Positions 18,832 to 61,603 of a stretch of 64,000 nucleotides of DNA are shown here, piece after piece. Origin of the DNA: a virus (Duplodnaviria > Caudoviricetes); the IMG/VR virus record IMGVR_UViG_3300030098_005649; one strand, 5' to 3'. The notes under the pieces are model-generated. The model was not told where the DNA came from and made no database searches. It worked only from the letters and a program-made list of their open reading frames with translations. The translations under genes were made by a program, and so were the position numbers. Each line of letters starts with the position of its first letter. The stretch's first letter is position 1.

Positions 18832-19176
18832 GTGGAAACGAATTTTATTCAAGAATTGGTAAATGAATACTCTTGGCTATTCTTTACTGGCATACTATTA
18901 TTATTGTTCAACAATACTATCTCTGAGGCAGTAGATGGTATTATGTTGTTCTTAGGTAACGACTACAACGAGGACGATGTTGTTGAGGTTGATGGTAGTC
19001 CTGGTCGTATCATACGAGTAGGGATATGGAAAACAGTATTCTTCATATACCACATAATAGATGGTAAGATTGTTGGCGGTTCTAAACTCGTGGTACAGAA
19101 CTCTAAACTAAAGGACTTGAAGATAGAGAAACCCTTACCTAACTTGGATTTATCTAAATATCAGAAACCAAAGTAA
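18832..19176 (+). CDS. truncated MscS-like protein (TM plus middle beta domain)
   Basis: LGNDYNEDDVVEVDGSPGRIIRVGIWKT..VVQNSKL matches MscS beta-domain pattern. Confidence 0.6.
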   Translation: METNFIQELVNEYSWLFFTGILLLLFNNTISEAVDGIMLFLGNDYNEDDVVEVDGSPGRIIRVGIWKTVFFIYHIIDGKIVGGSKLVVQNSKLKDLKIEKPLPNLDLSKYQKPK

Positions 19177-19479
19177 ATGAGATTTATTCACAATATATTA
19201 TTTTATGACCTATCTAATCTATTCAGTATTACTACTAATCGTACACGCATTCTAAGGTGGTTGAACTCTCGACCATCACTCAGATACCGAATCAAACAAT
19301 ATAATAAGAAACATTAGAATCTAACACATTTCTAACAAAATACCTTAGTTTTTAAAATCACTATTTCATATTTATCATTGGAACCCGAATCGGATTCTAT
19401 AGTGAGAGCAACTCATTGTAGAAAAGGATAAAACACCTGCGGTGGTCGGTCATACTATCAAACTAAATAGGAGAATACA

Positions 19480-19818
19480 ATGATAAAGGCAATATTGTGT
19501 TTATTACTTGTGGGCTCCTTGACGGCCCGTAATTACGAGTTTGGTGCTCGTAAAAGTCAAGAACCAATACCTGTGAAGGACTTTCGTTTGGAATACCACG
19601 ACATTCCTGATGGAGTAACTAATCTCATAGGTAAGGTTGTAGCAGTGTTTGACATAGACGAACACGGTAATGTATTAGACGCATATGTTCAAGATACCTT
19701 CAACATCCAACTAAATCACATAATCGTAGATAAACTAAAACAAACCAAATACCAACCAGCCATACAAAATGGAAGACCTGTGCGAGTAAGGATGACACTC
19801 CCTATCGTTTTCAAATAA
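19480..19818 (+). CDS. secreted TonB C-terminal domain protein
   Basis: Signal peptide (LTA|R) then GKVVAVFDIDEHGNV..YQPAIQNGRPVRVRMTLPIVF; no Pro-rich linker. Confidence 0.8.
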   Translation: MIKAILCLLLVGSLTARNYEFGARKSQEPIPVKDFRLEYHDIPDGVTNLIGKVVAVFDIDEHGNVLDAYVQDTFNIQLNHIIVDKLKQTKYQPAIQNGRPVRVRMTLPIVFK

Positions 19819-19900: not shown

Positions 19901-19929
19901 TTGACCCGTATTGTTTTTCTTTGTATATT
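19901..19929 (+). promoter_or_regulatory. sigma70-type early promoter
   Basis: aatgcTTGACC-17-TATATT. Confidence 0.8.
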
Positions 19930-61138: not shown

Positions 61139-61541
61139 GGGGGTGCTTGGTATCGACTGGTATTGTTTGATATAAAGTGCAACAGAGATTGAGTATGTCT
61201 CGTTACAAAAGACTCACAATCCAAATTGGCGAATTATCGCTAGAAGGGTTGGACATTGATTGGCATTTGGCTGAGTATGATTACTCAGTTGAGTTACCAA
61301 TCGGTAATGACCAACCAACTTACGCATACGCTGCATAAGTTACTGAGTTGTCTAACACTCGGTCATAAAATAAGTTAGACACCAACTCGTGTGATAGAGT
61401 ATAAATTTCATCAGTTAGACCATTCTGAGTAAAATGGGATATGGTGGTTTGTTGATTTCTACCGATTTGAAATCTTACTAAGTTGTGAATGACTTTGTAT
61501 TGAAAATAAACAGGACGCGGGTTCGACTCCCGCCACCTCCA
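61139..61541 (+). ncRNA. ssrA: tmRNA (transfer-messenger RNA)
   Basis: GGGGGTG/CACCTCC-A acceptor with G3:U70; GGTATCGAC 5' motif; GCGGG-TTCGACT-CCCGC T-arm; pk1 at ~61186-61216; tag frame 61228-61338 ending YAYAA*. Confidence 0.96.
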
Positions 61542-61603
61542 CAAAAATTCGATTTTTAGTTTTTTAGATGATATTTATAACTAATAACGAGAGGAACGAA
61601 ACT

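Follow-up and report, generated by a model that had tools for sequence, protein, structure and literature searches.

The gene of interest is a 112-aa ORF that lies exactly at 19480–19818 on the + strand of the window, as we call the whole 64-kb stretch of phage DNA that was analyzed, and because an in-frame TAG stands four codons 5′ of its ATG, a longer N-terminus is impossible. The window has ~33% GC, is coded almost wholly on one strand and is rich in small ORFs; it also contains glycosyltransferases, two tRNAs and a tmRNA, all of which are expected in a large phage. Its nearest record is a 109-kb IMG/VR contig (G001) in which the copy of the gene is 96% identical, and the core genes of the lineage are closest to those of Microcystis phage Mel-JY01 and LR756508, a 484-kb uncultured phage. 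The positions of the features at the locus, and of several features elsewhere that are discussed below, are collected in Table 1.

Table 1. Features of the TonB_C locus (window coordinates) and features on other records (their own coordinates).
Feature	Position	Strand	Basis or remark
Upstream neighbor, 114-aa small membrane protein (cluster c16)	18832..19176	+	Upstream neighbor in 4 distinct loci
Direct repeat CTAAC-N6-CTAAC, candidate regulator-binding site	19321..19336	+	Gene-specific
-10-like box CATATTTATC	19367..19376	+	TATTTAT invariant in aligned relatives (alignment A3)
Conserved 5′ leader, predicted long-range helix around AAGGATAAAACAC	19379..19454	+	Alignment, RNAalifold
Shine-Dalgarno AGGAG	19469..19473	+	6 nt before ATG
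Signal peptide spanning residues 1-16; signal peptidase I predicted to cleave after L-T-A	19480..19527	+	Family-wide pattern
Short mature N-terminal tail (residues 17-25)	19528..19554	+	pLDDT 63-78; outside the TonB-aligned part
Complete TonB C-terminal-domain fold (residues 26-112) and stop codon	19555..19818	+	Pfam, model, structure matches, hhalign
GC-rich hairpin, 8-bp stem, 3′ of stop codon	19832..19853	+	-17.7 kcal/mol, z -2.0
tmRNA gene	61139-61542		Rfam 84.9 bits; ARAGORN tag reading GNDQPTYAYAA
TonB-dependent receptor in G001 (L068)	G001:C1 about 90800-94126		Directly downstream of ribonucleotide-reductase-like gene
Cellular secreted TonB_C proteins, examples	L169 4115-4459 (114 aa); L170 3904-4335 and 4396-4836; L055 5674-6093		

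Residues 50–112 of the protein match the Pfam family TonB_C (PF03544) with a score of 33.4 bits relative to a cut-off of 24.6, and its orthologs score 32–50 bits. The match begins at profile position 15 and spans positions 15–78, leaving the canonical N-terminal Y-P segment unmatched. This segment is structurally present in the phage family, but the counterpart of the Y-P motif in it is Y-x-[DE], lacking Pro, and the clade has in place of the Y-P segment a conserved stretch of its own, P-x-P-I-x-P-F-x-L-x-Y-x-[DE]; the equivalent of E. coli Q160 varies. TonB-type matches in NCBIfam were all sub-threshold, and we found no PHROGs family for the 112-aa protein at E values up to 1.

An AlphaFold2 monomer model based on an 18-sequence alignment had a mean pLDDT of 88.9 (66 without the alignment), and TonB C-terminal domains were ranked first among its PDB matches by both Foldseek and VIA-align. 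The top match, 6i97_D, was P. aeruginosa TonB in complex with FoxA (Z 11.2, rmsd 1.7 Å, 84 residues), with model residues 26–112 superposed on P. aeruginosa TonB 251–337; E. coli TonB 150–231 was matched with a Z of 9.3, and further structural matches were to FusB and to TonB from the BtuB, FhuA and TbpA complexes. The 11 TonB-family chains, whose fold is a three-stranded sheet against helices, had Z scores of 8.2–11.2. A TolA-like domain was also considered and rejected, the best TolA match being weaker than those to TonB at a Z of no more than 6.4. In addition, hhalign paired G51, F57, G63, Y91 and P93 of the phage protein with G174, F180, G186, Y215 and P217 of E. coli TonB, respectively. 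The structural match and the hhalign pairing together lead to the conclusion that the mature protein corresponds to one complete TonB C-terminal domain. Its end is equivalent to E. coli residue 231, which closes the strand that pairs with the TonB box.

The N-terminus of the window copy is M-I-K, followed by a 13-residue uncharged run ending L-T-A and then by R. The 68 family members that were compared follow a similar pattern: 1–3 residues that include Lys or Arg precede an uncharged run with a median length of 13 residues (range 9–16) that is devoid of His in every case. The last residue of the run is Ala in 57 members and Ser in eight, with Leu or Val at -3, and the residue that follows it is Gln in 51 and Asn in nine. 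Judged by the run length and the -3/-1 rules, the N-terminus is probably a short Sec-type signal peptide with the signal peptidase I pattern, and we predict that it is cleaved. A lipoprotein reading was rejected in that there is no usable lipobox and the typical end of the run in the family, A followed by Q, is that of a signal peptidase I site; some members do have a Cys at residue 6–7, which is too early for a lipobox and is unconserved. The proposed distinctness of the protein from the Cor and Llp lipoproteins is thus upheld.

The membrane anchor of TonB is ~20 residues long and has an S-x-x-x-H motif. We found neither that motif nor a TonB-type anchor in any of the 68 members, the run being too short, and we found no Pro-rich spacer, as the ~9 residues that separate the fold from the predicted cut are not rich in Pro. 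Similarly, no match to MotA_ExbB or ExbD was found in five fragmentary phage records (51–68% complete). The original prediction had described a signal peptide, a short linker and a TonB_C domain, with neither membrane anchor nor Pro-rich spacer, and in this it agrees with the ORF, the Pfam match, the AlphaFold model and the family-wide run, the cleavage itself being a prediction. Lacking an anchor, a Pro-rich rod and motor genes, such a protein could not transduce energy.

The gene also has its own regulatory region. The CTAAC-N6-CTAAC repeat upstream of it is the sole copy in the window, the single exact copy in G001 lies upstream of the orthologous gene, and with one mismatch or fewer the repeat is present in 24 of 46 distinct ortholog upstream regions, relative to 0.04 expected per 250 nt. 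It is missing ahead of other genes in both the window and G001, and a role as a regulon-wide signal was therefore rejected. The repeat has an 11-nt period that resembles a response-regulator site (ortholog upstream regions in L002–L053). In the orthologs a TATATTTA-like box begins 13–40 nt (mode 30) 3′ of the repeat. The early-promoter consensus of the neighboring small genes, TTGACn-N17/18-TATATT, was not found before the TonB_C gene, and the next promoter of the early type downstream begins at 19901. In one sub-clade, which includes the window, a leader of ~100 nt is conserved (its counterparts include L007 4890–5003, L026 414–523 and L045 4826–4943); seven ortholog leaders had 75% column identity, and RNAalifold predicted 18 pairs, four of them with compensatory changes. 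The only Rfam match to the leader was to freshwater-2, below threshold (17.5 bits, E 2.1). The leader may be a cis-regulatory RNA. Nearly all orthologs have (T)AGGAGA or GGAGA, a strong Shine-Dalgarno sequence, 5–8 nt before the start codon. Beyond the stop codon, the GC-rich hairpin is possibly the end of the transcript, although the terminator scan did not call it because it has no U-run.

The genes that precede the TonB_C gene vary among relatives, with at least six upstream arrangements (the last gene of a pilin cluster, c10, c16, c4, c96 or a divergent gene) and spacers of 53–377 nt. The neighbor in the window, c16, matches the MscS beta-domain with a score that is below threshold (17 bits relative to 20.2), and relatives again have it next to either the TonB_C gene or the pilin cluster. 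That cluster consists of three or four type IV pilin-like genes followed by c8 (~141 aa) and c2 (~200 aa), which are conserved exported or anchored proteins, and it is often immediately upstream of the TonB_C gene (L002, L004, L005, L018–L025, L037 and L046); in nine of 44 distinct loci the TonB_C gene directly follows its last gene, with spacers of 53–140 nt. That the Shine-Dalgarno motif, the TATATTTA-like box and the repeat travel with the gene despite such varied neighbors indicates that it behaves as a self-contained, cassette-like and separately regulated unit.

How widespread is this small, secreted form of TonB_C? A pattern scan of IMG/VR identified 53 loci with it, giving 52 full-length ORFs and 44 distinct proteins; the homologs belong to related marine phages, have 33–51% identity and are all in loci of 31–38% GC. 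An exhaustive phmmer search gave 1414 matches of two kinds, proteins of 103–135 aa that align end to end, signal peptide included, with 36–55% identity, and secreted proteins with 3–7 tandem TonB_C repeats. The top-scoring relatives overall are of the tandem-repeat kind (P0002, P0003, P0005/P0152 from Pelagicoccus, P0006 and P0008/P0153), an architecture that is hard to reconcile with energy transduction. In the ESM Atlas, 28 of the 30 nearest clusters have TonB_C, the top three rows (the only ones for which taxa are shown) are recorded as 100% viral, and the cluster members come from marine metagenomes, Tara fractions below 0.22 µm among them. Across the phages the family is under purifying but fairly relaxed selection, with a median pairwise dN/dS of 0.34 (range 0.04–0.68). 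We found no DNA match to the gene among cultured and deposited phages, and their sole protein match was set aside as its architecture differs, being a multi-domain protein of 381 aa that is encoded on an unverified fecal contig of 6.8 kb. Nor did we find a phage-encoded soluble TonB domain described in the literature.

The signals that bear on the host of these phages conflict. Sigma-70-type early promoters are present in the window (11 on the + strand and one on the - strand), and SD-like motifs precede 42 of its 101 ORFs; such promoters and frequent SD motifs are untypical of Bacteroidota and oppose a host in that phylum. On the other hand, a scan of genome contigs for the TonB_C motif gave three Bacteroidota MAG matches, all to the last 27 residues, and Gln is found at +1 after the predicted signal cut in the TonB_C family, in a receptor encoded by the phages (L066–L071) and in c2. 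Gln at +1 (the “Q-rule”) has been described for Bacteroidetes signal peptides (PMC5837995), and these two observations favor such a host.

Among genomes from the phylum of one Bacteroidota MAG, 228 of 301 match the family profile (best E 5e-18), in the domain only. Several of these genomes encode secreted single-domain TonB_C proteins of 114–146 aa, some in tandem pairs, and the genes adjoin ECF sigma/anti-sigma genes or sit between chemoreceptor genes. The tandem pairs, whose proteins are 143–163 aa, are at L170 3904–4836, L171 (G194:C1 about 2304415–2305272) and G274:C21 40341–41220, and one pair is located between two methyl-accepting chemotaxis genes and cheW. These cellular proteins share with the phage protein the combination of a signal peptide and one TonB_C domain, and one of them is 35% identical to it over 66 residues; however, they match Pfam positions 2–79, Y-P included, with 55–82 bits, whereas the match of the phage clade covers positions 15–78 with 33 bits. 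Since cells themselves have secreted TonB_C proteins, the architecture alone is no sign of sabotage, and the existence of single and tandem cellular forms means that the fold may have periplasmic roles of another sort.

The receptor just mentioned is a TonB-dependent receptor of the phage's own. In each of the five records that bear TonB_C and reach a completeness of 50% or more, exactly one short TonB_C gene is accompanied by one Plug-domain ORF (915–950 aa). Behind a signal peptide, the receptor comprises CarbopepD_reg_2, Plug and barrel domains, and a highly conserved A-L-E-V-L-A-S lies before the Plug domain at the site where a TonB box is expected. It was found in 325 IMG/VR viral stretches (including L081–L160), as opposed to the 53 TonB_C loci, and its copies are 76–99% identical across contigs versus 33–55% for those of TonB_C. 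We found no regulatory motif common to the two genes, which are 8–71 kb apart, and neither gene is present in Mel-JY01 or LR756508, the two nearest complete outgroup phages. An obligate pairing of the two was not upheld, in that the receptor is encoded without TonB_C on a 130-kb contig that is 71% complete.

What might a phage do with a TonB C-terminal domain alone? Cor of T1, phi80 and N15, and Llp of T5, are outer-membrane lipoproteins that effect superinfection exclusion via FhuA. The likeness to them is that they too are small phage envelope proteins that inactivate a TonB-dependent receptor from within, although for the phage TonB_C that outcome is a proposal; and while Cor and Llp each bind one receptor, the phage protein, which has no lipobox, would act on the TonB box that receptors share. 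With the energy-transducing TonB proteins (E. coli TonB, P. aeruginosa TonB1 and FusB) it has the C-terminal fold and core residues in common, at 15–18% identity to the E. coli and P. aeruginosa domains. The periplasmic TonB engineered in E. coli by Howard, Herrmann, Stratilo and Braun (2001; cited in PMC9841981) is reported to be likewise an anchorless C-terminal part behind a cleavable signal peptide, and in its mature form the phage protein corresponds to residues 150–231 of E. coli TonB. It differs from the engineered fragments in being natural and phage-encoded, in that its effect is only predicted, and in having neither the YP motif nor the last short strand. The inhibition by periplasmic TonB domains on which the original prediction drew is corroborated for TBDT iron import in E. 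coli by PMC9841981, according to which the overexpressed TonB periplasmic domain inhibited that import (Howard et al., 2001).

It is because its anatomy matches that of this artificial domain that we rank first a role for the phage protein as an energy-uncoupled TonB-box binder that competes with host TonB, and that either excludes TonB-dependent phages and bacteriocins or re-allocates TonB; we put this forward tentatively, as a reading with somewhat less than an even chance of being right. In such a scheme, Sec would export the protein to the periplasm of the infected cell, where removal of the signal peptide would leave ~96 residues, essentially a bare TonB C-terminal domain. Having no anchor and no link to ExbB-ExbD, this domain would occupy TonB boxes without delivering force and, if abundant, could outcompete the scarce host TonB and so uncouple the transporters. 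Both TonB-dependent uptake and the TonB-dependent entry of competing phages and bacteriocins would then be blocked or re-balanced. The presence of a receptor in the same lineage makes indiscriminate jamming awkward, as the phage's own receptor would also be disabled, and by the same token it gives some content to the variant in which TonB is rerouted.

Several other readings were weighed. One, which we regard as unlikely, is that the protein derives from the cellular secreted class and binds some other periplasmic ligand, such as an envelope protein, the pilus machinery, peptidoglycan or an imported substrate. The loss of the canonical YP segment is consistent with such a role, as are the varied contexts of the single and tandem cellular proteins and the adjacency, in nine of 44 loci, to the pilin cluster, with other neighbors being small membrane or exported proteins. 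There is precedent in FusB, a TonB homolog that binds a protein substrate with its C-terminal domain (PDB 9hi3; PMC13253070). Against these considerations, the fold in its entirety matches that of TonB bound to a transporter and the core TonB residues are retained, while the pilin adjacency is just one of at least six arrangements, with spacers of 53–140 nt and a separate upstream motif.

Alternatively, the protein could serve the phage receptor specifically, binding its TonB box or its CarboxypepD_reg-like domain so as to silence it, stabilize it while it is assembled or time its activity, with host transporters left alone. The joint presence of the two genes in all five of the more complete records and their joint absence from both outgroup phages would accord with this, as would the architecture of the receptor itself, in which the signal peptide, CarbopepD_reg_2 domain, candidate TonB box and Plug are all in place. 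Yet the genes are far apart and have no regulatory motif in common, the receptor is much the more widely distributed and can occur in a largely complete contig that is devoid of TonB_C, and the unequal conservation of the two gives no sign of tight co-evolution, all of which makes a dedicated partnership rather unlikely. Finally, if the N-terminus were uncleaved the protein would be a minimal anchored TonB that couples to host ExbB-ExbD and energizes, for instance, the phage receptor. The AlphaFold model does show residues 2–20 as a helix, and the phage does carry a receptor that needs energy. However, the anatomy led us to reject an uncleaved anchor: the run is short, it has neither His nor S-x-x-x-H in any of the 68 members and it ends in a -3/-1 cleavage pattern, and with ~9 residues to the globular domain and no Pro-rich region such a protein could not span the periplasm. 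We consider an anchored form very improbable.

The TonB-box binder can also be imagined in combination with the receptor, as a two-part takeover of import in which the phage installs its own receptor while a selective TonB_C, flooding the periplasm, caps the TonB boxes of the host and spares that of the phage, with a regulator of host or phage origin that acts on the CTAAC repeat serving as the switch. We think this improbable. If true, however, the scarce TonB of the host would be funneled to the phage importer, and rival TonB-dependent phages and bacteriocins would be excluded.

The bacteria that dominate the turnover of marine organic matter take in nutrients mainly through TonB-dependent transporters, which are also common receptors for phages and bacteriocins. 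Were the phage protein a natural dominant-negative TonB domain, it would provide a ready probe of the interaction between TonB and the TonB box and a scaffold for its inhibitors. That interaction has already been pursued as an antibiotic target (PMC9841981). Our finding also draws attention to an unstudied cellular class of secreted TonB_C proteins. Lastly, if these phages do encode such a dominant-negative protein, it would represent a new class of receptor silencing by phages, one directed not at a single receptor but at the energy-coupling step that receptors share.
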